Below, piece after piece: positions 2,943-28,318 of a DNA stretch of 64,000 bases. Numbering within the stretch: position 1 is the first letter of the stretch; the number at the start of each line of letters is the position of its first letter. The translations under genes and the position numbers were made by a program. Origin of the DNA: a bacterium (GTDB taxonomy: Bacteria > Arandabacterota > Arandabacteria > Arandabacterales > Arandabacteraceae); the NCBI GenBank assembly GCA_029933125.1, contig JAOZOU010000004.1, positions 200,879-264,878 on the forward strand, written 5' to 3'. The notes under the pieces are model-generated. The model saw only the letters and a list, made by a program, of their open reading frames with translations. It had not been told where the DNA came from and did not search any database.

Positions 2943-2970
2943 TTGACACTGTGTTTCTCGCTTTTATATA
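2943..2970 (+). promoter_or_regulatory. sigma-70-like promoter TTGACA-N16-TATATA upstream of TBDT module 1
   Basis: TTGACA at 2943-2948 and TATATA at 2965-2970, about 65 nt upstream of ATG 3036. Confidence 0.4.
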
Positions 2971-3035
2971 GTATCTGCGAAAAGATAACCAAAATCGAGA
3001 CCCGATGAAGTCAGCGCAGCCCTGGAGGGGTCATT

Positions 3036-5738
3036 ATGTCTGCCTTGATTAGGATCAGCTTTGTACTTGCCCTTGTTTTGCTTTTTGCAGTCACCTCTGT
3101 GTTTGGCCAGGAGGTCGGAAGGATTGAAGGAACTGTGGTGGCTGCTAAGGATGGGAAACCCTTAGCCTATGCTAATGTGCTTCTTGTTGGTACGGGCATG
3201 GGGACATTTGCTAAGCAAAACGGAACTTTTACGCTTGAGAATGTTCCTGCAGGAACGTATACCGTCAAGGTCATGATGATGGGTTACGCTGCTCAGACAA
3301 GGGAGAACGTTGTTGTCAAGCCAGGGGAGACCACGCGGCTTAGATTTGAGCTCAAAGAGACTGTTGTGATGGAAGTGCCTGTTGTTGAAGTGGAAGCTGA
3401 AAGACCGATGGTTGATACCGAGCGAACCCAAACGAAGCGAACCATCGATACCAAGGAAGTCGCTGTGCGCTCGATCAATACAGTTGAGGATGCTATTGCA
3501 ACCCAGGCTGGAGTCGTTCTTGAACAGGGCGAGATCCATATTCGAGGTGGAAGATCTGGTGAAGTCAAGCAGTTTGTCGACGGTATTCAGATCAGTGATC
3601 CTTTCGTCGGCGCCAACTCGATGGAGCTCAGCCTTGCATCGCTTTCAGAGATAGAAGTTCTTTCGGGTGGCTTTGATGCTGAATATGGCAATGTCCAGTC
3701 CGGTGTTATCAATCTCAAGACGAGAGAGGGTGGAACGAGATATTCGGGTCTTGTTAAGTATATGACTGATGACTATGGAGCACCTGATAAGACCTATTTC
3801 AACTACGATGATTTAGCAATCGGCTTTGGGGGACCTCTGATTACAACCAATCTGAGATTTTTTGCCTCTGGCGAGGTTATGTTTACTGACACCTACCTTA
3901 AGACTCTTGAACCCAGGCAGCAAAAGGAGCTTTGGGGATTCATCAAGTTCCGTGAACGTCAGAGCAATAGCTACTCAGGTCAATGCAAGGTTACCTACTT
4001 CTTCACACCGACGAAAAAGCTCTCCTTGGAGTATCTCACCTCGGGTGAGAAGTTTGATTTTTATCATCATGCATTCAGTCGTGTTGGTTATTGGTCAGAA
4101 GCCCACAGACACTGGTGGTTTGAACCGCTTGATTCAACCTATAGCCTTTACATAGCACCTGCCCACACACCTGATATTACAAATGAACATAACAGTGTTA
4201 AGCTTGTCTGGAGACACACAATAAGCCCATCCGCATTTTACACGATGCGCCTCGGAAGATACGTCGCACTTCATAAAGAGGTTGTCCTTGGCAAGAAACC
4301 CTATGAATATGTGACCCCGAACTTCAACGATCGAGTTGATCCCGAAAACCGCTACTATGTTGTGCAGGGCGATTATCCAATCTGGCAGCGCTATCATACG
4401 ACGATGTACACAGGCAAAGGCGATATGACCATTACCAAGGGTACGACTCATCAGATAAAGTTTGGTGCAGAGTCACACGCCTATCGCCTCGAGATGATGG
4501 ATTTGCGTTATCCCTCCCTCGATAACCCCCTTGGTGTATTCACTGATATATACAAGTTCCATTGCTGGGACCTGTCAGCCTTCATTCAGGATCGCATAAG
4601 GTTTGAGGGTATGAACTTGAGGGTGGGCCTAAGATTTGACCTTTTCGACCCTGGTAAGGATGCTGTCGAAGCCTATAATAGATTCGTGGTATCGACAGGT
4701 TTTAAGCCCAAGCCAGCCTCCTTCTTCAAGCGAATTGAGTGGCAGATAAGTCCGCGCTTTGGGGTTTCCTATCCTATTTCAGAAAGAGACGCCCTTTACT
4801 TCAATTATGGGAGATTCTACCAGATTCCAAGGCTCGAGGTTCTTTACCAGTTCCTGGGTCGAACCGAGCAGGGACTGCTTCCTTTCGGTAATCCCCTCAT
4901 GGATGCTGAGACAACAATAATGTATGAAGTTGGCATTCAACATCAATTCACTCCAACGATTGTTGGTGATATTGCCCTGTTCTATAAGGACATCTTTGGA
5001 CTTACGGGCACTGAGGCAGCCGATCTAACTGAGGATTCTGACTTTATTCAGACCTATGGTCCGACCGCCACACCTGTTGTCTTTGTCAACCTTGACTATG
5101 GATCGGTGAGAGGCATTGAATTCAAACTCAGCAAACGTTTCAGCCATCATTTCCAGGGCAGTCTAACTTATACTTTTTCCAAGGCTACTGGCTCGAGCTC
5201 TAACGAGCTCCAGGGTGCCAATGTTGTGAGTGGGGCAATGGATCGAGCTCCGATAACTGAGCTGCCCCTTGATTGGGATAGAAATCATGTCATATCTGCA
5301 AATCTATATATAAGTGAGCCCGGGCTTTGGGGTTGCAACATTGACTGGAGCTATTCGTCAGGAGCACCCTATACGCCAATGTTGCCGAGGGAGCGTGAGG
5401 TCAGGGCTTCATTGATAAATTCAAGGCGGCTTCCTTCACGGAGCACGGTCAATGTGAAGGCCGACAAGCGTTACAAGATTGCTGGCCAGGAAGTTTCCCT
5501 CTTCCTCGAAGGCAGAAACATACTGAACCGCAAGAACATCGCTACGCTTGATCCAGGAGATTGGCCGGGTGGGGATGGCAACTACGCCGCGTATTATACA
5601 AGGGAGGGTAGGTTTGGTGGAGCTTATGACTTGGGTGAGCTGCTCGGGCTTACGGAGGTGATTTACATTCCTTTGAACGATCCACGAGTCTACTCGCCGC
5701 CTCGCAACTTCAGGGTTGGCATATCATTCGACTGGTAA
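3036..5738 (+). CDS. TonB-dependent outer-membrane transporter with N-terminal carboxypeptidase-regulatory-like domain (module copy 1)
   Basis: Has a signal peptide, a CarbopepD_reg-like beta-sandwich (GTVVAAKDGKPLAYANVLLVGTG...GTYTVKVMMMGY), a plug domain (IHIRGGRSGEV...SGVINLKTREG) and a C-terminus ending in an aromatic residue (GISFDW). An SD (GGAGGGG) precedes the ATG. Paralogous to 22808-25411. Confidence 0.8.
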   Translation: MSALIRISFVLALVLLFAVTSVFGQEVGRIEGTVVAAKDGKPLAYANVLLVGTGMGTFAKQNGTFTLENVPAGTYTVKVMMMGYAAQTRENVVVKPGETTRLRFELKETVVMEVPVVEVEAERPMVDTERTQTKRTIDTKEVAVRSINTVEDAIATQAGVVLEQGEIHIRGGRSGEVKQFVDGIQISDPFVGANSMELSLASLSEIEVLSGGFDAEYGNVQSGVINLKTREGGTRYSGLVKYMTDDYGAPDKTYFNYDDLAIGFGGPLITTNLRFFASGEVMFTDTYLKTLEPRQQKELWGFIKFRERQSNSYSGQCKVTYFFTPTKKLSLEYLTSGEKFDFYHHAFSRVGYWSEAHRHWWFEPLDSTYSLYIAPAHTPDITNEHNSVKLVWRHTISPSAFYTMRLGRYVALHKEVVLGKKPYEYVTPNFNDRVDPENRYYVVQGDYPIWQRYHTTMYTGKGDMTITKGTTHQIKFGAESHAYRLEMMDLRYPSLDNPLGVFTDIYKFHCWDLSAFIQDRIRFEGMNLRVGLRFDLFDPGKDAVEAYNRFVVSTGFKPKPASFFKRIEWQISPRFGVSYPISERDALYFNYGRFYQIPRLEVLYQFLGRTEQGLLPFGNPLMDAETTIMYEVGIQHQFTPTIVGDIALFYKDIFGLTGTEAADLTEDSDFIQTYGPTATPVVFVNLDYGSVRGIEFKLSKRFSHHFQGSLTYTFSKATGSSSNELQGANVVSGAMDRAPITELPLDWDRNHVISANLYISEPGLWGCNIDWSYSSGAPYTPMLPREREVRASLINSRRLPSRSTVNVKADKRYKIAGQEVSLFLEGRNILNRKNIATLDPGDWPGGDGNYAAYYTREGRFGGAYDLGELLGLTEVIYIPLNDPRVYSPPRNFRVGISFDW

Positions 5739-5761
5739 AGACCGTTAGGGAGGGTCGAAGA

Positions 5762-7900
5762 ATGGCAAGGGGAAGGTTGTGTTGCTCCGCAGCACTTATT
5801 GGCATTGTGGTCGTCCTGATTTTTGGGACTCTTTTGGAAGGTGAGACCTCAGCACATAACGAAGATTTCGGATTTCCACAGGTCTATCCTGATCCCTCTG
5901 ACCGTGTAGTGAAGTTCTTAGGCAAGTATCATAATCTCAACAATCTTTTGCTACATGTCTCCAACATGGGTTTCTTTGGTGATTGGAACTCCGATCCGAC
6001 TTCGCCATCGGCTGAATGGCCGGCCGGAAGCGGTATAGAGTATCTCTTTGCTGCAGGGCTTTGGGTTGGTGGAGTCGTCTATGACGAGTTCAACCGACCC
6101 GATACACTGGTAAGTGCTGCGGTTTATCAGCTCGAGTACTATCCCAAACCCGATGCCCGTGACGTGATCTACAAGACTGCTGAGAATGAACCGGGGGGCA
6201 GTAGAATTGGGGATGGTGCCGACGATGACGACGACAATCTGGTTGATGAAGATTGGCTTGACGGCTATGACAATGACGGAGATGGATTCATTGATGAGGA
6301 TTTTGCGGCAATCTCACAGCAGATGTACACGTGTACATTTTATGACACGACCACACTGATGAATGCCAACAGAACCGAGGATTTCCACAAGCCGCTCAAT
6401 TTACGTGTTAGACAGGAAAGTTATGCCTGGGGAGGTGAGGCTGCTAAGGATTTCATAGGCGTCGAATACAAGGTCACAAACATTGGGGACTCGACGATTT
6501 ATCAGGCATATGTGGCTTTCATGGTGGATGCCGACATAGGACCCGTTCGCCAGGTTCCGACCTCTTACACAGATGACATGGCCGCCTTCATTGATACGAC
6601 CGTCAAAAAATTTGAACTTAATCTCGATACTGGCAAGATAGAACCGAATGACTATGATCTAACTATTGGTTACATGTACGACTATCCAGGGGGAGACGAT
6701 GGTGATGTTCCAGGCTATATAGGCGTCATGTTTCTTGGTCACACGGTTGATGAAACAGGTAGGCTTGCGCCTCAGCGCGTTGAGATTCACATGTTCAGAA
6801 GCTGGTCAAGTGGTGAAGAGGATCCTCAGGATGACAAGGAACGCTACCGTTACATGCGGGGTAATTCCGATTTTGAGCAAACGATCGATCCGCCGACCAC
6901 AAAGCCTCAAGATTACCGATTCCTTGTTTCAGCTGGTCCCTTTGCGAGGATTCCGCCAGGAAGCACTCTTGTCTTCCAAGTCGCCTTCGTGTGCGGCCAT
7001 CCTTTTGATGACTTTATCGACAATGCTGCGTATGCTCAGAAGATCTACAATGGACGGGTGATTGACGACATACTATACCACTGGGTCGGGTCCAGTCCGC
7101 CTCCGCCGCCGAATCAGATGGTTATACCTAGTGATGGGAAGGTGATCATTGAATGGGATGACTACTCCGAGAGGGTACCCGATCCTCTTGAAGGGTGCTT
7201 TGACTTTGCTGGCTACCGAATCTGGCGAGCAGATGGGTGGAGGCATGAAAGTGAGGTGCCTACGGAGAATCAGTGGAAGCTTATAGCCCACTATGACCTG
7301 GACGATCTGCCGGCAATCGATACAGGCCTCGAGGGAGTTGGCAAGTATCGCTATATAGATTCCGTGGGTGTCCATAACGGGCTCCCCTATTGGTATGCTG
7401 TCACCGCCTTTGATGATGGTCGGGCATTCAGGTTCGTCGTTGATCCGGAGACAGATAGGATGGATTCGATACCGTTCTATGGGAGCTATGCCCAGGCACA
7501 GAAACTCGTATACCCAAGAGCTGAACCTGCTAGAAGAATGGGAAAAGTCCGAATTGTACCCAATCCCTATCCATGGAATCCGAGCAATCCCACGATCCCA
7601 GACGACCTCAGGGAGTCACATCGGGCAATTGGCGACATGGTTGAGTACGAAGGTGATCCCTCAGGGCGAAGGGTGACTTTCGTTGGCCTGCCTCGCAAGT
7701 CGATGGTGAGAGTGTATACCTTGGCTGGCGACCTTGTCTGGAGCAAGTATTTTGAGGGGCCGAATGATCCGATTACAGGTGCACCACCTCAGTGGAATCT
7801 GGTATCAAGAAACAACCAGGAGATTGTTAGCGGAATCTACATTGTCCATGTAGAATCACCTTACGGGTCTGAAATAACAAAGTTCGTTGTCGTCAGATAG
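5762..7900 (+). CDS. secreted acidic protein with Fn3-like domain and T9SS C-terminal sorting domain (module copy 1 cargo)
   Basis: Has a signal peptide and Asp-rich EF-hand/dockerin-like loops (DGADDDDDNLVDEDWLDGYDNDGDGFIDEDF). A poly-Pro linker (SSPPPPPNQ) is followed by an Fn3-like segment (YRIWRADGW...YWYAVTAFDDG). The C-terminal about 90 aa match the Por_Secre_tail pattern (RIVPNPYPW...VRVYTLAGDLV...GIYIVHVES...KFVVVR). A strong SD precedes the ATG. Confidence 0.7.
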   Translation: MARGRLCCSAALIGIVVVLIFGTLLEGETSAHNEDFGFPQVYPDPSDRVVKFLGKYHNLNNLLLHVSNMGFFGDWNSDPTSPSAEWPAGSGIEYLFAAGLWVGGVVYDEFNRPDTLVSAAVYQLEYYPKPDARDVIYKTAENEPGGSRIGDGADDDDDNLVDEDWLDGYDNDGDGFIDEDFAAISQQMYTCTFYDTTTLMNANRTEDFHKPLNLRVRQESYAWGGEAAKDFIGVEYKVTNIGDSTIYQAYVAFMVDADIGPVRQVPTSYTDDMAAFIDTTVKKFELNLDTGKIEPNDYDLTIGYMYDYPGGDDGDVPGYIGVMFLGHTVDETGRLAPQRVEIHMFRSWSSGEEDPQDDKERYRYMRGNSDFEQTIDPPTTKPQDYRFLVSAGPFARIPPGSTLVFQVAFVCGHPFDDFIDNAAYAQKIYNGRVIDDILYHWVGSSPPPPPNQMVIPSDGKVIIEWDDYSERVPDPLEGCFDFAGYRIWRADGWRHESEVPTENQWKLIAHYDLDDLPAIDTGLEGVGKYRYIDSVGVHNGLPYWYAVTAFDDGRAFRFVVDPETDRMDSIPFYGSYAQAQKLVYPRAEPARRMGKVRIVPNPYPWNPSNPTIPDDLRESHRAIGDMVEYEGDPSGRRVTFVGLPRKSMVRVYTLAGDLVWSKYFEGPNDPITGAPPQWNLVSRNNQEIVSGIYIVHVESPYGSEITKFVVVR

Positions 7901-7926
7901 GATAATTGAGGAAGGAGGATTTCGAG

Positions 7927-8904
7927 TTGAAAACTAAGATTGGATTAGCGCTTGCATTGATCCTGCTTGTTTCAAGCCTTGTCTGGTCGGCTGAGATCTT
8001 TGAGAAGGTTGGTACGGTTGGTGCCCAATTTCTCAAGATTGGGGTTGGTGCTCGTGGCGTTGGAATGGGTGAGGCATTTGTTGCCATGGATGGCGATGCC
8101 ACGTGCACGTACTGGAATCCAGCTGGCATAGCAAATATTGAAGGAAGTCAGTTTTCTCTGAGCCATGCTTCATGGCCTGCGGAGATGAGTCATGAGTTCG
8201 CTGCCTATGTTTTCTCCTACAAGTTTATACCAGGAGTGCTCGGGCTGAGTGCGGTGGTTCTCCAGATGGATCCAATGCCTGAGACGACAGAATATCGTCA
8301 GCAAGGCACTGGTTATTCCTTCGATGCCGGTAGTATGGCCTTTGGTCTGACGTATGCAAGGATGCTAACTGACCGTTTCTCTTTTGGTGCAACTTTGAAG
8401 TGGATACACGAAGGGTTGGCGGACTTCAGTGGCGAGACTTTTGCAGTTGATCTTGGGAGCATCTACAACACAGGCTTCAGGGACATAAAAATCGGCATGG
8501 CATTCGTAAACATGGGATCAGGCTATACTTTCTTCGAGGGAGGCAAGGAAAGTCCGATGCCTGTGATGTTTAAGGTAGGTGGATCAATGCCTCTGTTGAA
8601 CACCAGTGACCATAGGTTGATTGGGGCCGTGGAATTCAATCATCCACCGGATGGTGCCGAGCGGGTGAATGCTGGTGCTGAATACGTATTCCAGCGTTTT
8701 GGGCCTAACTTTGAAATAGCCTTGAGAGGTGGCTATCGCTTCAACCGTGATGAAGAGGGTATTACAGCAGGTTTTGGCATAAAGTTCCCATTTGTCAGAA
8801 TTGGCCTTGTCAACAAGCCCTCGATATGGAGAGTTGACTATTGCTATTCTGACATGGGCTTGCTCGAGAGCTCCCATAAGATCTCTCTGAGCGCTTCGTA
8901 TTAA
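7927..8904 (+). CDS. PorV/PorQ-family (FadL-like) outer-membrane beta-barrel protein, dedicated paralog (module copy 1)
   Basis: Signal peptide followed by the family-typical motif GTVGAQFLKIGVGARGVGMGEAFVAMDGDATCTYWNPAGIA. Length is about 330 aa and the protein ends in an aromatic-rich beta-barrel terminus (LSASY). Start re-called at TTG 7927, which has the SD GAGGAAGGAGGA 7 nt upstream. The ORF-track start at 7906 lies inside that SD. Confidence 0.6.
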   Translation: MKTKIGLALALILLVSSLVWSAEIFEKVGTVGAQFLKIGVGARGVGMGEAFVAMDGDATCTYWNPAGIANIEGSQFSLSHASWPAEMSHEFAAYVFSYKFIPGVLGLSAVVLQMDPMPETTEYRQQGTGYSFDAGSMAFGLTYARMLTDRFSFGATLKWIHEGLADFSGETFAVDLGSIYNTGFRDIKIGMAFVNMGSGYTFFEGGKESPMPVMFKVGGSMPLLNTSDHRLIGAVEFNHPPDGAERVNAGAEYVFQRFGPNFEIALRGGYRFNRDEEGITAGFGIKFPFVRIGLVNKPSIWRVDYCYSDMGLLESSHKISLSASY

Positions 8905-8905
8905 A

Positions 8906-10474
8906 ATGCGGTACTCGAGGCAAACTCAAGGGGTAGCAAGTGGTTTGCTACCCCTGATTGCTATTCCTCTCTTCCTGCCGTTGTCCGCCCTGTATGCCCA
9001 GACATGGGCTGAGTATGGTGACGTGCCAGTAAGCAGTAGCGGTGATCTCACCTTCTATGCCGATATTGCTAGCTACTATGATGGGGCAGAGAATCTCGAA
9101 GAAATCTACTTTCTGATAGCGAATGATCAGGTAAAATTTCTCGAAGATGCACATGGATACAAAGGGAGGCTCAGACTTTCAGTTGACCTACTCAATGACG
9201 ACGGTAGTGTTGCTGGAAAGGCTGAAAATGAAGTCACGGTTTATGCTTCGAGCTCGGAGGAAGCTCTCGACCGCAGCGTAGTCCAGGTTCTTCAAACACA
9301 GATTCATGTTCCGCCCGGTCGTTACGTTGCGAAGATGGAGATTGAAGATCTCAATGCTGTGAAAAAAGCCCTTATTCCATACATTCTTAAGCGACATAAG
9401 AAGGGTAGGGTTGAAGTCCTGATAGACTCACCCGATTTCAAAGCCAAGGGAATCGCACTAAGCGACATAGAGTTTGCAAGGGGACTTCGTAGGACTAGCA
9501 AGGGGCAGTTCCAGAAATCGGGATTAGAGATCATTCCAAACCCTCCTCGGCGCTATGGGCTCTTGCTTCCAGAGCTCGCCATCTACTTCGAGGTTTATGA
9601 TTTTGATCAGGAGGTTTCCGATTCGGTCACCGCAACCTACAGGATAGTGAATAGGACAGGTGCAGAGATATATAAGCAGCAGAAGCTTTTGCGGGTAAGA
9701 GGAGAGCGCACACCGAGTACCGCTCTGTTTGATATTACATCCTTGAGTGCGGGTAGCTATCTTCTCGTTGTCAGCCTTGATCTTGCAGGGAGAAGCGTCA
9801 GCAGTCAGCGGAAGTTTGACGTGGCCTGGTCACCGCTGTCCTGGGGAAGGTACGAAACTGAGATGATAGGAGACGTGGAATACATCCTCACAGAGAAAGA
9901 GATGGAGGAGTTTGAATCACTCTCCCCTGGGGGGAGGGAAAGATATCTCGAGGAGTTCTGGCGCAGGCTTGACCCCACACCTGGTACTGCTGAGAATGAG
10001 GCGAGAACGGAGCATTATCGAAGAGTCGTCTATGCCGACAAACACTTTGGGACGAGCACCAAGCGTGGAGCCCTCTCCGATAGAGGGAGGCTCTACATTA
10101 AGTACGGTCCACCCGATGATATCCAGAGTTTCTATTCTGACATGGATTTTGTTAAAGGCAGACGCCACATCGAAGGTGCTGAGTCGCCAGTACCGACCGA
10201 TCCCTTCACTCGCGTGGGAATAAAGGCTGGTTCGGGTGAGCCTGGTGGATGGCAACAGGCCGGCTCATCTGCAGATGTCCATGGAGATCAAATTGGTGGC
10301 ATGACAGTTCATGGCAAAGCGTATGAGATATGGACATATGAAGGCGCTGGCAAGCCGATTCGGCGTCTTTCAAAGCGGATTGCTAAGAGTCCTGTGATGC
10401 AATTTATCCTGGTTGATGAGAAAGGAATAGGCGATTACAGGCTTGTCTATAGCACCGAGCAACAGGAATACTAA
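8906..10474 (+). CDS. GWxTD-domain protein, secreted (copy 1)
   Basis: Signal peptide plus a C-terminal region (EEFWRRLDPTPGTAENEARTEHYRRVVYADKHFG...RGRLYIKYGPPDDIQ) that matches the GWxTD-domain pattern. Paralogous to 18630-19886, which carries the exact GWRTD motif. Starts 2 nt after the PorV-like stop. Confidence 0.55.
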   Translation: MRYSRQTQGVASGLLPLIAIPLFLPLSALYAQTWAEYGDVPVSSSGDLTFYADIASYYDGAENLEEIYFLIANDQVKFLEDAHGYKGRLRLSVDLLNDDGSVAGKAENEVTVYASSSEEALDRSVVQVLQTQIHVPPGRYVAKMEIEDLNAVKKALIPYILKRHKKGRVEVLIDSPDFKAKGIALSDIEFARGLRRTSKGQFQKSGLEIIPNPPRRYGLLLPELAIYFEVYDFDQEVSDSVTATYRIVNRTGAEIYKQQKLLRVRGERTPSTALFDITSLSAGSYLLVVSLDLAGRSVSSQRKFDVAWSPLSWGRYETEMIGDVEYILTEKEMEEFESLSPGGRERYLEEFWRRLDPTPGTAENEARTEHYRRVVYADKHFGTSTKRGALSDRGRLYIKYGPPDDIQSFYSDMDFVKGRRHIEGAESPVPTDPFTRVGIKAGSGEPGGWQQAGSSADVHGDQIGGMTVHGKAYEIWTYEGAGKPIRRLSKRIAKSPVMQFILVDEKGIGDYRLVYSTEQQEY

Positions 10475-10481: not shown

Positions 10482-10510
10482 TTGACAAGGTTGGGTGGGG
10501 ATATTATGGT
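10482..10510 (+). promoter_or_regulatory. possible promoter TTGACA-N17-TATGGT upstream of exbB
   Basis: TTGACA at 10482-10487 and TATGGT at 10505-10510, with a 105-nt leader to ATG 10616. Confidence 0.3.
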
Positions 10511-10615
10511 TTATGCGATCAATCACATGGTCGTTTGATCGGGTGCTTACCGATCGACGGCCTATTAATGTGGTTAGGACAGACTAGGGATAACTTCCAC
10601 AAGGAGAAGGGTAGA

Positions 10616-11449
10616 ATGAATCGCATGAGGCTCTGGCTCTTTTTGCTCACAGTTGCTGCAGGTCTTGTTTTTGCTTTGGCTTGTCATGCTCAGGAGCAGG
10701 CTACAACCGAGCAGGCAGCCACTGATACCTCCATTGCGGCGATGTTGAAATCCCTCGAGGCACCCCCAGAAGAAGCTCAAGCTGCTGAAGAGGGATTCGT
10801 AGCCAGGATACGCAAGAGCGGACTGGTGACCCTTTTCTTAAAAGGTGGAATCTTCATGTATTTCCTCTTGGGCACATCCATTGTTGGTGTGGCTGTTATC
10901 ATAGAGCGTGCGATTACACTGAGTCGCGCTAGGACTGACGTGCGGAAGCTGATGAAGCGAGTGCTTGATGCCCTTCATTCAAAGGGAGTTGAGGCAGCTG
11001 CCCACGAGTGTGAGAGAACCCGGGGACCGATTGCGGCGATCCTTCATGCTGGTCTTAAGCGTGCAGAGCGAGGAACGGAGGCTGTTGAGCGAGCAATTGA
11101 GACTGCCGGTACGATTGAAACCTCTTTCCTCGAACGGGGTCTTATCTGGTTGGCAACAGTTGCAACGATTGCCCCACTCTTAGGCTTCCTCGGAACAGTT
11201 TCAGGAATGATTCGAGCCTTCAACGCGATTGCTGAGGCTGAACAGGTCAATGCCAAGCTTGTTGCATCGGGTATCTCAGAGGCTCTTATCACAACCGCTA
11301 CTGGGCTTTTGATAGCTATTCCTGTTCAAGCATTTCATAATTTCTTTGTTTCTCAGATAGATCGTTTTATAATAGAGATGGAGGAGTCAACAGCAGATCT
11401 AATAGATACGCTGATCATGCTTGGCGCTGTAAAGGAAACCCAAGACTAA
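10616..11449 (+). CDS. exbB: MotA/TolQ/ExbB proton-channel protein with N-terminal periplasmic extension
   Basis: Signal peptide and periplasmic extension, then MotA_ExbB TM helices (GGIFMYFLLGTSIVGVAVIIERAITL...LATVATIAPLLGFLGTVSGMIRAF). Start moved from ORF-track 10535 (TTG) to ATG 10616, which has SD AAGGAGAAGG upstream. Confidence 0.8.
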   Translation: MNRMRLWLFLLTVAAGLVFALACHAQEQATTEQAATDTSIAAMLKSLEAPPEEAQAAEEGFVARIRKSGLVTLFLKGGIFMYFLLGTSIVGVAVIIERAITLSRARTDVRKLMKRVLDALHSKGVEAAAHECERTRGPIAAILHAGLKRAERGTEAVERAIETAGTIETSFLERGLIWLATVATIAPLLGFLGTVSGMIRAFNAIAEAEQVNAKLVASGISEALITTATGLLIAIPVQAFHNFFVSQIDRFIIEMEESTADLIDTLIMLGAVKETQD

Positions 11450-11463
11450 AGGGGTGAGCGACA

Positions 11464-11871
11464 GTGAAATTCGGACGAAGAGCCAAGGTTTCGGATGAGA
11501 TACCAAATGCATCGCTCTCCGATATAGCATTCTTACTCCTCATATTCTTCATGGTGAGCACAGTCTTTGCAATTGAGGAAGGGCTTCTGCTTCAGCTGCC
11601 AAGCAAAGAAGGTGTTGTTAAGAAGATTGCTCGTAAGAACATAATGCGCATCTCGATTTATGCTGATGGCAACATAACCGTTGATGATCAGCCAGTTACC
11701 TTGGATCAGATAAGGCAAAAAGTTGAGCAAGCTCAGGTGGAGAATCCTAAGATCGTCTTTGTTGTTGAGACTTCACCCGAAGCCAGATATGGTCAGATGG
11801 TGGATGTTCTCGATGAACTTAAATTAGCTAAAGCTACAAGGGTTTCACTAAAGCGGCTTGAGGAAAAGTGA
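11464..11871 (+). CDS. exbD: biopolymer transport protein ExbD/TolR
   Basis: 135 aa with an N-terminal TM segment (DIAFLLLIFFMVSTVF) and the ExbD periplasmic fold pattern. Confidence 0.8.
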   Translation: MKFGRRAKVSDEIPNASLSDIAFLLLIFFMVSTVFAIEEGLLLQLPSKEGVVKKIARKNIMRISIYADGNITVDDQPVTLDQIRQKVEQAQVENPKIVFVVETSPEARYGQMVDVLDELKLAKATRVSLKRLEEK

Positions 11872-11880
11872 AGGTAGGCT

Positions 11881-12300
11881 ATGGCTAGGTTTCAGAAGAA
11901 GATCCGTGCCGAGAGTAAGATTCCGACCTCTTCAATGGCGGATATCGCCTTCTTGCTCCTTATCTTCTTTATGGTTACAACAGTTCTTAAGCTTGAGGAA
12001 GGACTCCCCATAGCATTGCCGAAAGCGGAGGCAGCTGAGGATATTCCCCGAGAGAACGTGATTCACATATGGGTTGACCGCACGGGCAAGATCTCGATAA
12101 ATGACATGATAGTCAAGACCGGTGCTGTTGAGGGGATCGTTTCTCAGAGATTGAGGTCAAATCCTGGAATAATAGTTGCCTTCTACACGGATGAAAATGC
12201 CCCCTATGGAGTAATGGATGACATAATGGAGCAGCTTAAGAGGGCAAGTGCGGTCAGGGTATCCTTTGCATCCAAGAAGGAGAAGCTTCGCTTAAGATAG
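11881..12300 (+). CDS. exbD: biopolymer transport protein ExbD/TolR (second copy)
   Basis: 139 aa, paralog of the preceding gene (MADIAFLLLIFFMVTTVL...). Confidence 0.8.
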   Translation: MARFQKKIRAESKIPTSSMADIAFLLLIFFMVTTVLKLEEGLPIALPKAEAAEDIPRENVIHIWVDRTGKISINDMIVKTGAVEGIVSQRLRSNPGIIVAFYTDENAPYGVMDDIMEQLKRASAVRVSFASKKEKLRLR

Positions 12301-12307
12301 GAGATGA

Positions 12308-12925
12308 GTGTCAGTGACAGCTTATGCTGAACTCAAAGCGAAATATCCCAAGTATCTTGAAATTGGATTCCTGCTTGCGATTGTGATCCATGCAGTTGCT
12401 TTCGCTTTCTGGCCGGAGTATGTGCCTTCGGTCTATAAGCTCAGGGAGGAGAAATTTGAAGTTGTCGATATTCCACCCGAGATAGAGATACCCCCACCAC
12501 CTGAGGAGATAGCCAGACCAGAGGTCGCTGTCGAGATCGAGGCAAGTGATGAGGCAAGTGAGGAGGAGACCATTGCGCCGACGATGTTCGACGCCGAGAA
12601 TCTACCACCTGCTCCTCCACCTCCACCACCTGAACCTGAGATGTTTTTTGCGTTCGATACCTATCCGCAGGTGATTCATGCAGCTAAGCCTAAGTATCCT
12701 GAACTGGCTCGCAAGGCCGAGGTCGAAGGTACTGTTGTGGTGATGGTTACTATTGATGAAACCGGCAAGGTCATAAATGCGTGGATTGCCCAGTCCGATG
12801 CCCCGATCCTCAATGATGCTGCTATTGAAGCAGCCTATAAGTTCAAGTTTACGCCCGCTAAGCAGCGCGATGTGCCTGTGAAGGCAACCATTAGTATTCC
12901 ATTTAGATTTTCGCTTACCGAGTAG
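12308..12925 (+). CDS. tonB: energy transducer TonB
   Basis: N-terminal TM anchor, a Pro/Glu-rich spacer (PPEIEIPPPPEE...PPAPPPPPPEPE), and a C-terminal TonB domain (AKPKYPELARKAEVEGTVVVMVTIDETGKV...). Confidence 0.75.
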   Translation: MSVTAYAELKAKYPKYLEIGFLLAIVIHAVAFAFWPEYVPSVYKLREEKFEVVDIPPEIEIPPPPEEIARPEVAVEIEASDEASEEETIAPTMFDAENLPPAPPPPPPEPEMFFAFDTYPQVIHAAKPKYPELARKAEVEGTVVVMVTIDETGKVINAWIAQSDAPILNDAAIEAAYKFKFTPAKQRDVPVKATISIPFRFSLTE

Positions 12926-13697: not shown

Positions 13698-13711
13698 GAA
13701 GGGGGAAGGGC

Positions 13712-22807: not shown

Positions 22808-25411
22808 ATGCGAAAACTTACTCCTATCTTTATGGTCGTATTGTGGCTCGCTTTCGCCTGTGGTCTCCAAGCGGGAACAACAGGGAAGATCGCAGGTATG
22901 GTAATTGATGCCGAAACCGGTGAGCCCCTCACTGCGGTAAACGTCACTGTCGAAGGTACGCATCTAGGTGGAATCAGCAACCTCGAAGGGCTTTATCACA
23001 TCGTAAATGTTCCACCTGGTACCTATTCAGTCAAGGCTTCAATGATGGGCTATCAGCCTCTTGTGGTTGATGGAGTTGTTGTCAATGCTGATTTCACAAC
23101 AACAGTTGATTTCCAGCTTGACCCCACAGTACTCGAGGTTGTTCCCGAAATTGTGGTTACAGCTGAGAGGCCGATGATAAGAAAAGACATGACTTCATCA
23201 ATCAGCGTGGTTGAGCATGATGAAATATCCATGCTTCCCATTGAGTCGCCCTTCGACATAGTCAGCTTCCAGGCAGGTGCTGCGCTTGATCGCAGGGGTA
23301 TCCATATCCGTGGAGGACGTGAGACTGAGATATCCTATGCCATCAACGGGGCGACAATTCTTGATCCTATTTTCTCGAGAGCTTCTGCGAGCTATGACGA
23401 ATCTGCAATTCAAGAAATGGTCATCCTGAGTGGGGGATTCACTCCAGAGTATGGAAATGCTCAATCAGGTATAGTGAATGTCATCACCAAAGAGGGTGGA
23501 CCGACTTTCAAGGGAGAAGTTGAAAAGCAATTCTATCTTCCTCTTGAGACCCTTTGGCAGGCTGCTGACGATGCGAAGAAGTATGACACGGGTTACAATA
23601 CAACCAAGCTTACCCTCAGCGGTCCAACCCCTTGGACAGATAAGCTGAGGTATTTCATCTCAGGTGAAACTTCCAAGTGGGACGATTGGGATCCCCATGT
23701 CTATGTTCTCCCCAATCAAGGTCGTGATCTCGATCAGGTCATCTGGAAGGTTACAGGCTTCCCTGGCCACAATGTCAAGCTCTTCAGTGAGGGACTTTTC
23801 TACTACACCAAGTTCAGGGTTTGGGATGCTCAGCGCCAGAAGATACCCGAGACCTTCCTTCAGTATAAGAGAAAAACACTTGTCAATCTCGTTGGCATGA
23901 GCCATATGGTAAGCCCGAGTACATATTATGATGTCTCCCTGTCGAGGTTTTCCACTTCCTATCATGTTGCTCAGCCAGGCAAGTGGTATGATATGAGCAA
24001 ATCCCAGGAGTGGAACACCACTCCTGCCGAGGAAGGCGGTGGTGGCTTAGATCTTCAGCCAGAATATGATGAGGACAACTTCATCGTAGCTGGAGATAAT
24101 CCCCTCTTTCATGACTCACAATCCACTGTTTATGGTTTCAGGGCAAGCCTTACAAGCCAGGTGAATGAACACCATCAACTCAAGGTCGGTGGTGAGGTTG
24201 ATCTCTACGACTCACGTCATCAGGAGGTCTATGCTCCAGCAGGTAACATCTACAGGAACGACTACAGGGTAACTCCAAGGTACTATGTTGGCTATCTACA
24301 GGATAAGATTGAGTACAGCGGGCTCATTGTAAACACAGGTCTTAGGCTGGATGTTTTTGATCCCAACTTTAAGTATCCTTCGGATCCAATCTATCCCTGG
24401 GATCCTTCAATACAGGTCCCTGGACCCGAGTGTGGAGGTCCGGACAATACCGAGCCTCCTCTTTGGAAGCTTAAAGACGCATCTGTTAAACTTCAGGTTA
24501 GCCCGCGTCTTGGTATTTCTCACCCTGTCTCCGAGAGAACCGTGCTTCACTTCACCTATGGCCACTACTTCCAGGTTCCGGCTTTCCGCTATCTGTACAC
24601 CAATACCAAGTACGACATGGGCGGGCATTGGCCGCTCATAGGTAACCCCAATCTTAAGCCGGAAAGAACCGTTTCCTACGAGGTTGGGCTTGAGCATCTG
24701 ATTGCTGAGGACCTCATGATAGACCTTACAGGTTTCTACAAGGACATTTATGATCTCATCTCAACTGTTGTGATAAATGATAGTCGTGATTCCGATACCC
24801 CACCCGATGCAACCGAGTACACAACCTACCGTAATACAGACTGGGGCAATGCGAGAGGCTTCGAGGTCACACTTCAGAAGAAGTTCAGAGAGGACTGGAT
24901 GGGAAGGCTCATCTATACTTTCATGGTTGCAAAGGGTAGAAGCTCGGATGTTCTCGAGGGCTACAGAAATCGCTTTGAGGGGAATGTACCACCTTCCAAG
25001 GAATATTATCTGGATTGGGATAGAAGGCACAATATAGTTGTCGACCTGGGCTACGGCAGGCGCGACAACTGGTCAGTGAATGTTCTCGTCAAATATGCCT
25101 CAGGTTCACCATATACTCCTGTTGAAAATACCAGGTCCGCTCAACCCGAGCAGAATACCGCAAGATTCCCTTCAACGTCCGTGGTCAATCTCAAGCTCTC
25201 CAAGGATTTCAATCTCTTTAACATGAGGGAGCAGGTTTTCCTGCAGGTTGAAAATCTCTTCAACAAGCGCAACCTTGTTGCCTTCGATGATGACAATACC
25301 GATCTGATGCGTCACCTGAGACTAACCGGTGAATATACCGGACCTTTCAATGATGTAACTGTCTATGGAGCACCGAGAGAGATAAAAGGAGGCATTAGAG
25401 TGCAGTTTTAG
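22808..25411 (+). CDS. TonB-dependent outer-membrane transporter with CarbopepD_reg-like N-domain (module copy 2)
   Basis: Paralog of 3036-5738. Signal peptide, GKIAGMVIDAETGEPL...GTYSVKASMMGY, plug (IHIRGGRETEI...SGIVNVITKEG), and a C-terminus ending in an aromatic residue (GIRVQF). Start moved to ATG 22808, which has SD GGAGGAGAGG upstream. Confidence 0.8.
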   Translation: MRKLTPIFMVVLWLAFACGLQAGTTGKIAGMVIDAETGEPLTAVNVTVEGTHLGGISNLEGLYHIVNVPPGTYSVKASMMGYQPLVVDGVVVNADFTTTVDFQLDPTVLEVVPEIVVTAERPMIRKDMTSSISVVEHDEISMLPIESPFDIVSFQAGAALDRRGIHIRGGRETEISYAINGATILDPIFSRASASYDESAIQEMVILSGGFTPEYGNAQSGIVNVITKEGGPTFKGEVEKQFYLPLETLWQAADDAKKYDTGYNTTKLTLSGPTPWTDKLRYFISGETSKWDDWDPHVYVLPNQGRDLDQVIWKVTGFPGHNVKLFSEGLFYYTKFRVWDAQRQKIPETFLQYKRKTLVNLVGMSHMVSPSTYYDVSLSRFSTSYHVAQPGKWYDMSKSQEWNTTPAEEGGGGLDLQPEYDEDNFIVAGDNPLFHDSQSTVYGFRASLTSQVNEHHQLKVGGEVDLYDSRHQEVYAPAGNIYRNDYRVTPRYYVGYLQDKIEYSGLIVNTGLRLDVFDPNFKYPSDPIYPWDPSIQVPGPECGGPDNTEPPLWKLKDASVKLQVSPRLGISHPVSERTVLHFTYGHYFQVPAFRYLYTNTKYDMGGHWPLIGNPNLKPERTVSYEVGLEHLIAEDLMIDLTGFYKDIYDLISTVVINDSRDSDTPPDATEYTTYRNTDWGNARGFEVTLQKKFREDWMGRLIYTFMVAKGRSSDVLEGYRNRFEGNVPPSKEYYLDWDRRHNIVVDLGYGRRDNWSVNVLVKYASGSPYTPVENTRSAQPEQNTARFPSTSVVNLKLSKDFNLFNMREQVFLQVENLFNKRNLVAFDDDNTDLMRHLRLTGEYTGPFNDVTVYGAPREIKGGIRVQF

Positions 25412-25426
25412 GACTGGAGGTTGGAA

Positions 25427-27313
25427 ATGAGAGCAATATGTGCCTATTTGATTATTATCTCAGTGCTGAGTGTTTCGACAACTGCCTTAGCCTGGGATGC
25501 GGACGCAGTCTCTAAGTTTGGCCCCCCGACATCGCAAAACCGCGAACGCGCCCTTGCCGCCGCTCCCTGTATTTCAGCTACTTCGAGATACACCATAGGT
25601 GACCTTTGGTTTCCCCAGATCTACACAGTTGGCTTGTGCCTCTACACGGGTTACTATCCTGGGTCATCTAATAACATGCAGATTTTTCAGACGGGCCCAT
25701 GGATGGGGGGCTATGCCGAGGATGGCGGAGGTGAACCCTGGACAGCGATCGGAACATTCGATCAGCTTGACTTCCTCATGTATGACAGCATCTGCAGCGG
25801 ATTCAATGTCTCAGAACCAGGGCAGAGCTCTGTCGATGTGGAAAGCACCTTCGATACTGCCTATTCACCACGCGATCTTGGCGTGGTTGTCACTCTTCGC
25901 TACATGATGTGGGACGATCCGAGGCTTGACGACTGTATCGTCATAAAGGCTGGAATTAAGTTCAGAAAGGCTATTGAGGATTTCTGGTTTGGATGGATGT
26001 CTGACTGTGACATCGGCAACAATGATTTGCCTGACTACTACTACGATGATCTCGTTGGCTATGATGAGACGAGAGGCGTTGCCTACATGTATGACGATGA
26101 CGGTGACCCAGCAATTGCTACAGATGCTAAGAGCAAATTGCTTTCCTCGGCACATGTCGGACAGGTTCTTCTGTCCGCACCGCCTCCCGGTGGAAGCATA
26201 CATGTGCCACCTGCAACCAATGTTTCCTGGGAGACATTTGCATGGTGGGACTGGAATAATGATGTGACAGGTGATGCGGCTGCCTACGAAAGAATGTGCC
26301 GGGGAACGATTAGCCCATATCCGCCCGAGGTACCCTTCGATTACAGGATGATGACCGCTGTTGGTCCTTACGATGTCGAAGCCGGTGATTCAGCAACATT
26401 CTACATCGCACTCGTTTTTGGAGAAGGTCTCGATGCCGAATACTGGGCACGCCGGAGCAAGATAGGTGGCGAGGTTTCCGACATGGGCTCACTGATCGAG
26501 CATGTTGAGAACATCAAAGATTTCTTTGCCTCCGGTCTTGTACTTGCTGATCCGGCGCCTCATCCGCCGATTCTTGAGGATCCACGCCTCAACGGAAGAA
26601 AGGCGACCCTGAGCTGGGAATCGGTTTCTGAAGAGGATGACGACTTCGCAGGCTACAGAGTGTATCGAAGCCTTGTCTCGAATGTTGGGCCTTGGGATCT
26701 TCTCGCTGACTTTGCTGGTAGACCTTTTGTTCACACCTATGAAGATACACTAAGAATTGGATTCCCAACTTTCTACCTTGTCACAGCATATGATTTGGGT
26801 GGAAACGAATCCAATAAGGGCAGTGCTGTAACAAAGACCCTCGGAGGAATCTATGCTACCACTGTGCCTTCAGACTATGAGGGTGACTGTGAAAGTCTTT
26901 GCGAGGATCAGTGCCAGGATTGTCAGGAATGCTATGATCAATGCCTTGAGAAATGTATGCAGGCAAAGCGAGCAGCAGCCCTTGACAAAATCCTGGTAGC
27001 ACCTAACCCCTACAGAGGAAGCGCAGATTGGGAAAGGCTTGATTACGAGGGGCGTATTGCGTTCTACAATCTCCCCAGGCGTTGCACAATTTATATCTAC
27101 ACGATAACTGGTGAACTCGTTGACGTCGTATATCACAACATGCCTGGTGATGATACACCCGATCCTGAGGAAAGTGAAACAGGTGGTGAAAGGTGGGACA
27201 TGATTACCTCAAATGGGCAATCGATTGCCAGTGGCATATACATCTATCGAGTTACAAGTCCAGAATATGGTGAGAAAATCGGTAAGTTTGCGGTCATAAG
27301 AGGTGAACGCTAA
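25427..27313 (+). CDS. secreted acidic protein with Fn3-like domain, Cys-rich segment and T9SS C-terminal sorting domain (module copy 2 cargo)
   Basis: Signal peptide and shared motifs with 5762-7900 (DCDIG/DADIG, YMYDDDGD/YMYDYPGGDDGD). Fn3-like segment (GYRVYRS...FYLVTAYDLGGNES), Cys cluster CESLCEDQCQDCQECYDQCLEKC, and CTD (LVAPNPYRG...TIYIYTITGELV...GIYIYRVTS...KFAVIRGER). Confidence 0.7.
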   Translation: MRAICAYLIIISVLSVSTTALAWDADAVSKFGPPTSQNRERALAAAPCISATSRYTIGDLWFPQIYTVGLCLYTGYYPGSSNNMQIFQTGPWMGGYAEDGGGEPWTAIGTFDQLDFLMYDSICSGFNVSEPGQSSVDVESTFDTAYSPRDLGVVVTLRYMMWDDPRLDDCIVIKAGIKFRKAIEDFWFGWMSDCDIGNNDLPDYYYDDLVGYDETRGVAYMYDDDGDPAIATDAKSKLLSSAHVGQVLLSAPPPGGSIHVPPATNVSWETFAWWDWNNDVTGDAAAYERMCRGTISPYPPEVPFDYRMMTAVGPYDVEAGDSATFYIALVFGEGLDAEYWARRSKIGGEVSDMGSLIEHVENIKDFFASGLVLADPAPHPPILEDPRLNGRKATLSWESVSEEDDDFAGYRVYRSLVSNVGPWDLLADFAGRPFVHTYEDTLRIGFPTFYLVTAYDLGGNESNKGSAVTKTLGGIYATTVPSDYEGDCESLCEDQCQDCQECYDQCLEKCMQAKRAAALDKILVAPNPYRGSADWERLDYEGRIAFYNLPRRCTIYIYTITGELVDVVYHNMPGDDTPDPEESETGGERWDMITSNGQSIASGIYIYRVTSPEYGEKIGKFAVIRGER

Positions 27314-27334
27314 TCTCGGTTAGGAGGTTGGATC

Positions 27335-28318
27335 ATGAGACTTAAGCTTGTTCTGGGCGCAGTCCTGATTTTGATTTTGGCGACATGCGTCTTCGGGATG
27401 CAGAACAAGGTTGGCACAGCCGGCGCGCTCTTTCTCAAGATTGGCATGGATGTCAGAGCGGCTGCAATGGGAGAGGCAAGTGGAGCACTTGTTGGAGACG
27501 CCTCGTGTGCATTTGGTAATCCCGCTGGCCTTGCAGGTATTGCCACTAAACAGATATTCATCACCGACACCGAATGGATTGCTGATATAAGGCTTCTTGG
27601 GGGAGCTTATGCCTTTCCTTTTGGCCTCTCAAGTGTGATTGCTTTGAGCGGCGTTTGTGTTGACTACGGTTCGATGCCTATGGTTAGAGAGGCTGAGGCT
27701 GACGCTGTGGTTGAGACCTTCAATCCCAAAGATATTGCTGTCGGGATCTCCTATGCCAGAAGATGGACAAATCGCCTTCTTGTCGGAGGTTCGGCCAAAT
27801 ACATCGATCAGGCTATAGCTGATTATCACTCCCGGGGCATTGCCTTTGACTTCGGCACCATCTACTACACTGGTTTCAGAACGTTAAGACTTGCCATGTC
27901 CACAAGCAACTTTGGACCTGATATGAAGTTTGATGGGACCTACATTGACAAGTATTACATCGGGACAGCATATGTGGAAACGCAGAAGGAATTCGGTACC
28001 TACGATCTTCCGCTAAACTTCAGGATTGCCCTTGCATACGATTTCGATATATCGTCTGGCTCAAAAGTCACAGTTGCTCTTGACGCAACTCATCCTAACG
28101 ACTATTCGGAAAGATTGCACTTTGGGGCTGAATATTCCTGGGATGGAACATTCTTCCTGAGAAGTGGATACACTGTCAATGCTGAGGAGATGGGCTTCTC
28201 CGCCGGCTGTGGTGCGAAGATTTCCACATCCATGGGCGCTGCAAGCTTCGATTACGCCTACACTGATTTCGGAGTCTTCGATGGTGTCCATCACTTTGCT
28301 TTAGGGATTTGCTTCTAA
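27335..28318 (+). CDS. PorV/PorQ-family outer-membrane beta-barrel protein, dedicated paralog (module copy 2)
   Basis: Signal peptide plus GTAGALFLKIGMDVRAAAMGEASGALVGDASCAFGNPAGLAGI. About 327 aa with a C-terminal aromatic residue (LGICF). SD TAGGAGG upstream. Confidence 0.6.
   Translation: MRLKLVLGAVLILILATCVFGMQNKVGTAGALFLKIGMDVRAAAMGEASGALVGDASCAFGNPAGLAGIATKQIFITDTEWIADIRLLGGAYAFPFGLSSVIALSGVCVDYGSMPMVREAEADAVVETFNPKDIAVGISYARRWTNRLLVGGSAKYIDQAIADYHSRGIAFDFGTIYYTGFRTLRLAMSTSNFGPDMKFDGTYIDKYYIGTAYVETQKEFGTYDLPLNFRIALAYDFDISSGSKVTVALDATHPNDYSERLHFGAEYSWDGTFFLRSGYTVNAEEMGFSAGCGAKISTSMGAASFDYAYTDFGVFDGVHHFALGICF

Follow-up and report, generated by a model that had tools for sequence, protein, structure and literature searches.

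TonB-dependent transporters (TBDTs) commonly work with co-receptors on the cell surface. A stretch of 64,000 nucleotides of bacterial DNA (the window; positions 200,879 to 264,878 of contig JAOZOU010000004.1, assembly GCA_029933125.1, lineage Arandabacterota) was analysed. In it, a TBDT gene is followed by a gene for an acidic protein whose C-terminal domain (CTD) resembles type IX secretion system (T9SS) CTDs, and then by a gene for an outer-membrane barrel of the PorV/PorQ family. The middle protein is called here the cargo. This trio of genes occurs twice in the window, and it is useful to set it beside the described systems that it resembles.

The closest analogue in gene logic is provided by the Slam or type XI secretion system (T11SS) loci of Proteobacteria, such as TbpA-TbpB-Slam1 and HrpA-HrpB-HrpC with TonB, where TBDT co-receptors are displayed by a dedicated barrel encoded at the same locus as TonB (PMC8406197). 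In both cases a TBDT is encoded with a cargo (an N-terminal part that binds the ligand, putatively so in the trio, and a C-terminal beta targeting domain), a dedicated barrel and Ton genes. The Slam cargo is a co-receptor or scavenger for its TBDT, and the same is proposed below for the trio. However, the barrel of the trio is of the PorV/PorQ family, while the Slam barrel is a DUF560 protein with tetratricopeptide repeats (TPR). The targeting domain is a T9SS-like immunoglobulin-type (Ig) sandwich and not the 8-strand TbpBBD barrel of the Slam cargo, and the trio is found in the Fibrobacteres-Chlorobi-Bacteroidetes (FCB) group. Membership of type XI secretion was rejected, since neither DUF560 (PF04575) nor TbpBBD has a Pfam match in the barrels or cargos of the trios.

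The SusC/SusD (RagA/RagB) pairs, known from polysaccharide utilisation loci in Bacteroidota, were the model invoked in the first-pass annotation of the window. The likeness holds insofar as the gene of a TBDT with a CarboxypepD_reg-type extension directly precedes that of a partner on the cell surface (putatively so for the trio), paralogous modules occur in one genome, and the partner has a carbohydrate-binding-type fold. It does not extend to the proteins themselves. On the SusC/RagA model TIGR04056, TBDT1 reaches 24 bits and TBDT2 60 bits against a cut-off of 368, in the region of the N-terminal extension and plug only, and SusC/RagA membership was rejected. A partner of SusD/RagB type was rejected as well. 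The predicted structure of the cargo is all-beta (supersandwich, Fn3, CTD) and not TPR, no SusD match was found for the cargos in the Pfam or NCBIfam scans, and the standard lipobox is not present at the N-terminus of cargo 1. Unlike SusD, the cargo has a CTD and a barrel encoded by a third gene.

Two arrangements within the T9SS are also related. In the first, PorQ keeps PorZ at the cell surface and PorV does so for PorU (PMC8545088), a barrel of the PorV/PorQ family holding a surface protein by its retained CTD in each case; it is the C-termini of PorZ and PorU that the CTD of the trio matches best. However, the proteins of the trio are not orthologues of these, all equivalog cut-offs being missed. 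Their cargo has an N-terminal supersandwich in place of beta-propellers or a sortase, and their operon includes a TBDT. In the second arrangement, cargos with a type B CTD rely on cognate shuttle or anchor barrels of PorP/SprF-like type encoded alongside, as in SprB-SprF, and specific CTD-barrel pairs decide the final location (PMC12618676, PMC9143113). The order of a cargo gene followed by its own dedicated barrel gene is shared with the trio, while the CTD of the trio is type A-like, its barrel is of the PorV/PorQ family, and a link to a TBDT and Ton genes is added. Finally, Oar of Myxococcus xanthus is a CarboxypepD_reg TBDT that has a TonB box, is paired with its own Ton system and is functionally tied to a specific protein, PopC (PMC6434023). 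Unlike the cargo of the trio, PopC lacks a CTD, and its gene does not adjoin oar and a barrel gene.

Each principle has a precedent: the TBDT co-receptor, the CTD held on a PorV/PorQ-family barrel, and the cargo whose cognate barrel is encoded next to it. No description of all three joined in a single conserved operon, or of the spread of such an operon through FCB phyla other than Bacteroidota, was found in the searchable literature, the search having covered T9SS, PorV and TBDTs in Eisenbacteria, Gemmatimonadota and Fibrobacter. When the window was first read, the arrangement was likewise not recognised as one already described.

The transporter, cargo and barrel genes

The features of the two trios and of the adjoining genes, with open reading frames (ORFs) taken from the ORF table, are the following.

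3036..5738, + strand: TBDT1, 900 aa; signal peptide, CarboxypepD_reg N-terminal extension, plug and 22-strand-type barrel
3381..3413, + strand: TonB-box-like segment VVEVEAERPMV of TBDT1 (residues 116-126), a motif kept across 48 homologues
5762..7900, + strand: cargo 1, 712 aa, isoelectric point (pI) 4.47; signal peptide, predicted galactose-mutarotase-like beta-supersandwich (about residues 50-445), Fn3-like domain (about residues 450-585)
6221..6304: two invariant acidic DxDxDx[LF][VI]DED[WF] loops of cargo 1 (residues 154-181)
from 7547: T9SS-like CTD of cargo 1, beginning at VRIVPNPY (residue 596)
7927..8904, + strand: barrel 1, 325 aa; PorV/PorQ-family outer-membrane beta-barrel
22808..25411, + strand: TBDT2, 867 aa; architecture as TBDT1
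23147..23179, + strand: TonB box EIVVTAERPMI of TBDT2 (residues 114-124)
25421..27313, + strand: cargo 2, about 628 aa from the ATG at 25427, pI 4.29; divergent supersandwich, Fn3-like domain
from 26990: CTD of cargo 2 (family CTD profile, 95 bits)
27335..28318, + strand: barrel 2, 327 aa; PorV/PorQ-family barrel
8906..10474, + strand: GWxTD protein 1, 522 aa; signal peptide, a pair of Ig-like beta-sandwiches, GWxTD domain at the C-terminus
10535..11449, + strand: ExbB (MotA/TolQ/ExbB proton channel; PF01618, 113 bits)
11464..11871, + strand: ExbD copy 1 (PF02472, 85 bits)
11881..12300, + strand: ExbD copy 2 (PF02472, 85 bits)
12308..12925, + strand: TonB C-terminal domain (PF03544, 70 bits)
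2943..2972, + strand: best promoter-like match in 18 kb, TTGACA-18-TATAGT, 11 of 12 positions, in the 152-nt gap before TBDT1
10482..10510, + strand: second-best promoter-like match, TTGACA-17-TATGGT, 10 of 12 positions, in the gap before exbB

The tight packing described for the genes 3036-5738, 5762-7900 and 7927-8904 and the GWxTD gene is seen in the ORF table, with spacers of 23, 26 and 1 nt. Barrel 1 starts at the ATG at 7927, while the ORF itself opens at TTG 7906. A signal-peptide-like N-terminus can be read directly from the sequence of all four products. The complete set of exbB-exbD-exbD-tonB was likewise found directly downstream (10535-12925). The second trio, reported at 22808-28318, is present there on the same strand (22808-25411, 25421/25427-27313 and 27335-28318), and the profile scans give it the same domain content as trio 1. 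In general, the component identities given in the first-pass annotation were upheld by the Pfam and NCBIfam scans, with the CTD of the cargo below threshold in the window copy.

The similarity of the two trios, member by member, is also confirmed. Comparison by BLASTP gives 32% identity for the two TBDTs (E 1e-116), 25% over about 520 columns for the cargos (E 2e-21) and 32% for the barrels (E 6e-53). The motifs quoted earlier are visible in these alignments: that of the cargos takes in the stretches MVDADIG/MSDCDIG and YMYD..GD together with Fn3 and CTD stretches, and the N-terminus G(A)xFLKIG..R..GMGEA..D..C..NPAG is found in both barrels. Judged by these alignments, all three members are paralogous between the copies, far beyond chance, and the three genes were duplicated as a set within one genome, with trio 2 in a different neighbourhood. 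Only two ORFs in the window carry the cargo CTD, and only two encode a PorV/PorQ-type barrel.

A protein was taken as a TBDT if it had the Plug (PF07715) and barrel (PF00593) domains above the Pfam cut-offs and a TonB box. TBDT1 matches CarboxypepD_reg with 69 bits, Plug with 33.8 bits (cut-off 23.9) and TonB_dep_Rec_b-barrel with 95.9 bits (cut-off 27). For TBDT2 the barrel match is 118 bits and the Plug match 21.3 bits, slightly below the cut-off of 23.9. The TonB-box-like segment, with the consensus EVVVEAERPMV, and the plug motifs are preserved in 48 TBDT homologues. By these profiles and motifs both proteins are classed as TonB-dependent transporters. The Oar-type domain architecture, that is, a CarboxypepD_reg extension, a plug with TonB box and a barrel, is present in both, and PF25183 also matches the TBDT in the Pfam scan.

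The barrels exceed the cut-off of the PorV/PorQ family model NF033709 (90 bits) about twofold, with 190.3 bits for barrel 1 and 191.3 bits for barrel 2, and both pass PF19572 (35.6 and 36.2 bits, cut-off 27). The equivalog models are missed by both: NF033710 for PorV gives 78.9 and 65.8 bits against 250, NF033711 for PorQ gives 90.1 and 106.4 bits against 220, and the cut-off for PorV2 is not reached either. In each barrel the PorQ score is higher than the PorV score. The sole sequence match in the PDB is PorV of F. johnsoniae (6h3i_F, E 2e-6), and such barrels in Eisenbacteria metagenome-assembled genomes carry the NCBI label 'PorV/PorQ family protein'. A generic FadL/OmpP1/TodX identity was rejected, the Toluene_X model PF03349 giving 16 bits for barrel 1 against 29.7 and no match for barrel 2. 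The earlier assignment of the barrels to a PorV/PorQ-like type, and not to generic FadL transporters, is therefore sustained by the family model, the Toluene_X scores and the PDB match.

The main body of the cargo has no Pfam or NCBIfam match in either copy, and a cargo profile searched against PDB sequences gave nothing at E <= 1. Among nine distant family members no Pfam domain was found except for one apparent fusion artefact. The family is large and has no Pfam model: at least 983 representative clusters are found at E <= 1e-30, a number that rises to 4347 at E <= 1e-10; the weaker matches are often limited to the Fn3 and CTD part. The family profile of the N-terminal domain finds cargo 2 with E 2.8e-11. 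The supersandwich is a carbohydrate-binding-type fold and is thus consistent with a capture role for the cargo. The tandem acidic loops inserted in it would be, by their sequence pattern, EF-hand or dockerin-like Ca2+ sites.

The cargo CTD is a C-terminal beta-sandwich of about 115 residues, in which the pattern PNPY...G(D/E)LV...SGIY.Y...KF.V.R can be read in both cargos. A type A CTD was defined by at least 23 bits on TIGR04183 or at least 27 bits on PF18962 at the extreme C-terminus. Among 28 members of the cargo family, TIGR04183 matches at E <= 0.01 in 18, the PorZ C-terminus in 17 and the PorU C-terminus in 11. Among NCBIfam models the CTD matches the PorZ C-terminus best, and cargo 2 likewise has C-terminal matches to both PorZ and PorU. 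The PorZ/PorU-type matches are confined to the CTD, over about 70 residues, and amount to 20 bits against an equivalog cut-off of 260. Foldseek retrieves PorU (E 1.3e-5) and PorZ (E 1.5e-4), and NCBI lists one cargo homologue as a 'T9SS type A sorting domain-containing protein'. Because of the family-level matches, the NCBI name and the Foldseek result, the domain is assigned to the T9SS-type CTDs, in a divergent form that is marginally type A and nearest to the retained, anchoring CTDs. The T9SS sorting domain claimed at first thus has its pattern, the family and the predicted fold in its favour, but in the window copy it is a sub-threshold call. In related loci there are proteins with type A CTDs above threshold (PF18962, 32.6 bits; TIGR04183, 30.8 bits), so that the sorting signal is in use in these lineages.

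Some features of the cargos vary. Many family members reach 800-1250 aa and end in different C-terminal parts. In cargo 2 the Fn3-like domain and the CTD are separated by a Cys-rich stretch, CESLCEDQCQDCQECYDQCLEKC (nt 26888-26956, residues 490-512), that is not found in cargo 1; there are 15 Cys in the whole of cargo 2. This stretch may be involved in metal binding or form a disulphide-rich stalk.

Gene order in other genomes

The conservation of gene order was assessed in two scans. In the cargo-centred scan a cargo profile was used with one genome per GTDB species, and the flanking ORFs were classed by phmmer with the window proteins. The ORFs of fetched loci were stop-to-stop frames compared with the window proteins by phmmer, a procedure by which distant TBDTs or cargos could be missed. 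Since the loci were picked by similarity to the queries, the fractions describe this subfamily and not all PorV-like barrels.

A TBDT upstream and a barrel downstream were found in about 40 of about 70 evaluable cargo-centred loci (36 clean cases and 4 with the TBDT hidden by a read-through frame), and most of these run on as GWxTD-ExbB-ExbD-ExbD-TonB. They come from Eisenbacteria, Krumholzibacteriota, Fibrobacteraceae, Effluviviaceae and related metagenome-assembled genomes (MAGs). The loci nearest to the window, with 63-73% identity, are in MAGs labelled Candidatus Eisenbacteria or unclassified 'bacterium'; at greater distance the labels are Gemmatimonadota, Krumholzibacteriota, Chitinivibrionia, Fibrobacteraceae and Effluviviaceae. 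Going by the labels of these nearest loci, the window most likely stems from a MAG of the Eisenbacteria lineage within the FCB group. In a closed 4.7-Mb genome (locus L002, 46% identity) the same order is given by independent gene calls with precomputed Pfam labels.

The barrel-centred scan was made on metagenome contigs. Here a cargo-family CTD protein is encoded immediately upstream of 55 of the 64 evaluable barrels, and only one has neither a cargo nor a TBDT in that position. A TBDT is present for all cargos with at least 4.5 kb of upstream DNA (19/19). Of 42 loci that could be evaluated for it, 25 have a GWxTD gene downstream of the barrel, and ExbB is downstream in 9 of 32. The trio recurs across phyla at 25-45% identity, in many metagenome loci without the surrounding genes, and divergent versions similar to trio 2 were found (L143, L154 and L156). 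The gene-order screen proposed with the first reading of the window finds the trio order kept in genomes both near and far (about 40 of about 70 cargo-centred loci; 63 of 64 barrels next to a cargo or a TBDT). From this distribution the trio is the conserved core, with the GWxTD and Ton genes belonging to a 'primary' version, in which the GWxTD gene is, judged by its position, the fourth gene of the conserved unit. The divergence of the three proteins is correlated (Spearman 0.79-0.94). A reading of this as co-evolution was set aside, because shared phylogeny alone would give it.

Two variants of the arrangement were observed. In a sub-lineage of Eisenbacteria (L012, L017, L018, L034, L040, L044) two different PorV/PorQ-family barrels follow the cargo in tandem, at about 12-14.4 kb in each locus; these loci lack a GWxTD gene, and some 4 kb separate the Ton genes from the barrels. 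In locus L147 (472-16756) the order is a sigma-54 activator, an LplA-like gene, a TBDT of 1120 aa, a PorV/PorQ barrel (197 bits) and a protein of 806 aa, with a subtilase carrying an above-threshold T9SS CTD encoded nearby.

Proposed role and alternatives

The reading that we tentatively prefer, although we rate it at somewhat less than an even chance, is that of a TonB-powered importer with a surface co-receptor docked via its CTD to a dedicated PorQ-like barrel. The sequence itself shows which domains are present, that the two copies are paralogous, that the genes are packed as in an operon and that their order is conserved. The trio would be an outer-membrane unit for nutrient capture. The TBDT would act as a TonB-gated importer, energised in trio 1 by the ExbB-ExbD-ExbD-TonB set encoded just downstream. 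The cargo would be exported by Sec as an acidic surface protein, the supersandwich of which, probably loaded with Ca2+, would capture a ligand, most likely a glycan, while the Fn3-like domain would be a spacer that keeps it away from the membrane. The CTD would serve as the export handle and then as a non-covalent tether on the PorV/PorQ-family barrel encoded next to it, and the barrel would set the cognate co-receptor beside its TBDT. The cargo would then function as SusD does on SusC, or as TbpB/HrpC next to TbpA/HrpA, with the difference that the tether is a barrel-bound CTD and not a lipid.

We infer the surface location of the cargo, its docking by CTD to the barrel, its contact with the TBDT, the direction of import and the nature of the ligand from several lines of evidence. 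These are the components themselves, their tight packing behind the best promoter-like site, their joint duplication and the conserved gene order. The likeness of the CTD to those of PorZ and PorU, the PorQ-leaning scores of the barrels, the type A CTDs in related loci, and the precedents of T11SS and type B CTDs point in the same direction.

If this proposal is correct, the trio would be a third way of giving a TBDT a surface co-receptor, after the lipid-anchored lids of SusD type and the lipoproteins displayed by Slam. It would give a partner and a role to many automatically annotated PorV/PorQ paralogues in uncultured FCB phyla outside Bacteroidota, and a first functional context to the large cargo family. 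It would also point to the means of substrate acquisition by Eisenbacteria, Krumholzibacteriota and their relatives in soils and sediments, and offer a testable case for the evolution of CTD-barrel specificity in type IX sorting.

Several observations weigh against this proposal. The CTD of cargo 1 scores 17.3 bits on TIGR04183, under the cut-off of 23, and cargo 2 has no match to this model at E <= 0.01. Among about 45 proteins scanned within the 64-kb window there is no SprA/Sov, PorK/L/M/N, PorU or PorV proper. The supersandwich fold is also found in enzymes (mutarotases, lyases, GH174), so that the cargo could be catalytic instead of a binder. Of the two trios only trio 1 adjoins Ton genes, and it resembles a single conserved core locus; a housekeeping role would suit it as well as a nutrient-specific one. 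In the cargo-centred scan about 29 cargo homologues are solitary, without TBDT or barrel, one of them (L001) being a second cargo copy in the same closed 4.7-Mb genome as L002. This indicates that the cargo family is not exclusively a partner of TBDTs and needs no TBDT encoded in cis. On the metagenome contigs 8 of the 64 barrels lie directly behind a TBDT with no cargo between. In L147 the 806-aa protein encoded after the barrel is a lipoprotein (lipobox LASC) with no known domain, and this lipoprotein may take the place of the CTD cargo.

The same components could work in the opposite direction, in the manner of Oar. The Ton-powered TBDT would move the CTD protein outward and the barrel would receive and hold it, making up a self-contained device for secretion and display. 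We consider this unlikely. The architecture of the TBDT is that of M. xanthus Oar (CarboxypepD_reg extension, plug with TonB box, barrel), PF25183 matches it, and Oar, which is likewise paired with a cognate 'Oar-related' Ton system, is needed for the secretion of PopC (PMC6434023). TBDT, cargo and Ton genes are co-conserved, and the adjacency of TBDT and barrel is kept even without a cargo gene. However, the roughly 29 family members with the same CTD and no adjacent TBDT must leave the cell by another route, and Ton genes are missing from the vicinity of trio 2 and of many metagenome trios (ExbB in 9/32). A standard export route is probable in view of the ordinary type A CTD proteins in related lineages and of SprA, which is reported from all FCB phyla but Chlorobiota (PMC12611786). 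Import is the function of nearly every TBDT that has been characterised, and the authors of the T11SS-locus study argue that TonB serves uptake and not export (PMC8406197).

The T9SS has been considered possible in other FCB phyla (PMC11285876); the literature found is silent on Eisenbacteria. When SprA-sized ORFs were sought in 161 fetched loci, the long frames were spurious apart from one AddA/RecB helicase.

Equally unlikely, in our estimate, is a housekeeping module for T9SS attachment, in which cargo and barrel would be the local counterpart of PorZ-PorQ, the cargo as a glycan-binding surface protein on a PorQ-like barrel and the pair serving to sort or anchor other CTD proteins, with the TBDT and Ton genes as mere neighbours. 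The best match of the CTD, the PorQ scores above those of PorV and the retrieval of PorZ and PorU by Foldseek would agree with this, as would the conservation of the trio 1 locus across phyla; PorZ moreover binds a glycan, the mannan of anionic lipopolysaccharide (A-LPS) (PMC8545088). However, the matches cover only the CTD of about 70 residues and lie far under the equivalog cut-offs (20 against 260 bits, and 90-106 against 220 for PorQ), and the cargo has no beta-propellers. Such a module would also leave unexplained the 19/19 linkage to a TBDT, the joint triple duplication and the many paralogues per genome.

A more radical version of outward transport, which we regard as quite improbable, is an export-display device independent of SprA. 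Either the Ton-powered TBDT, as in Oar, or the 14-strand PorV-like barrel, as in Slam, would translocate the CTD protein, and the barrel would retain it. If this were true, PorV-family barrels and type-IX-style CTDs would first have evolved as accessories of TonB-dependent transporters, and in the module one would see type IX sorting of FCB phyla other than Bacteroidota in an ancestral or a parallel form.

It is very unlikely that the barrel is a FadL-type channel for lateral diffusion of a hydrophobic or amphipathic substrate beside the TBDT, with the CTD protein incidental. PorV does belong to the FadL superfamily, weak Toluene_X matches were obtained (16 bits in the window, 27.4 bits in L147), a homologue bears the name 'long-subunit fatty acid transport protein' in one source, and eight loci have TBDT and barrel without cargo. 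However, Toluene_X stays under its cut-off in every case tested, whereas NF033709 is exceeded about twofold (190-197 bits), L147 included. The only PDB sequence match is PorV, and 55 of 64 barrels are encoded directly behind a protein with this specific CTD.

Inherited synteny with no joint function, by which the genes are neighbours owing to a conserved chromosomal region, is as unlikely, for although the conserved order reaches further (an LplA/LipB-like gene and small membrane proteins upstream; Yip1, TolC, MacB-like genes and a second GWxTD downstream), the trio was duplicated as a unit into a different neighbourhood of the same genome, it is met again, with other neighbours, in many metagenome loci and across phyla (25-45% identity), and its intergenic gaps are 1-26 nt.

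GWxTD protein, promoter-like sites and flanking genes

GWxTD protein 1 matches TIGR04514 with 93.9 bits against a cut-off of 28. Its model consists of two Ig-like sandwiches and a C-terminal alpha/beta domain, and a fold search with this model gave generic sandwich matches only. In Acidobacteria the GWxTD domain is fused to Peptidase_M56, a membrane sensor-protease of BlaR1 type, and other GWxTD homologues carry Wzt_C or Por_Secre_tail domains. These fusions hint that GWxTD binds or senses something outside the cytoplasm. At 8929-8955, 25 nt past the stop codon of barrel 1 and within the opening codons of the GWxTD ORF, there is a perfect stem of 12 bp with a loop of 3 nt (AGGGGTAGCAAG-TGG-TTTGCTACCCCT). 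This could act as a partial terminator, or as an element of mRNA processing or stability, that sets the ratio of trio to GWxTD expression.

The promoter scan was a matching to sigma-70-like consensus only. The total counts from the promoter and terminator scans do not exceed those of shuffled sequences, and for this reason only the positions of the two best promoter-like sites were used, with caution.

Upstream of trio 1, a gene similar to lipoate ligases of LplA/LipB type (window 2140-2883) immediately precedes the TBDT. This is the case in 27 of 54 evaluable loci, examples being L012, L034 and the distant variant locus L147 (3478-4302), the last of which otherwise shares only the TBDT and barrel. 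The linkage may be functional or just old synteny. Past tonB (window 13011-19886) there follow Yip1, a TolC-like outer-membrane efflux protein (OEP), HlyD, two MacB-like FtsX permeases and a second GWxTD protein (18630-19886; PF20094, 59 bits). In L002, about 45% identical, Yip1, OEP, ABC and GWxTD genes are likewise found behind tonB, so that in both genomes GWxTD proteins flank the TBDT module and a tripartite ABC exporter. Trio 2 is followed (28427-31123) by a 4Fe-4S dicluster protein, a CCG-domain protein and a pyridine-nucleotide-disulphide oxidoreductase, with no Ton genes. Nearly all long ORFs of the window are on the + strand and the cumulative GC skew climbs monotonically over the 64 kb, which places the window inside a single replichore with strong co-orientation of genes.

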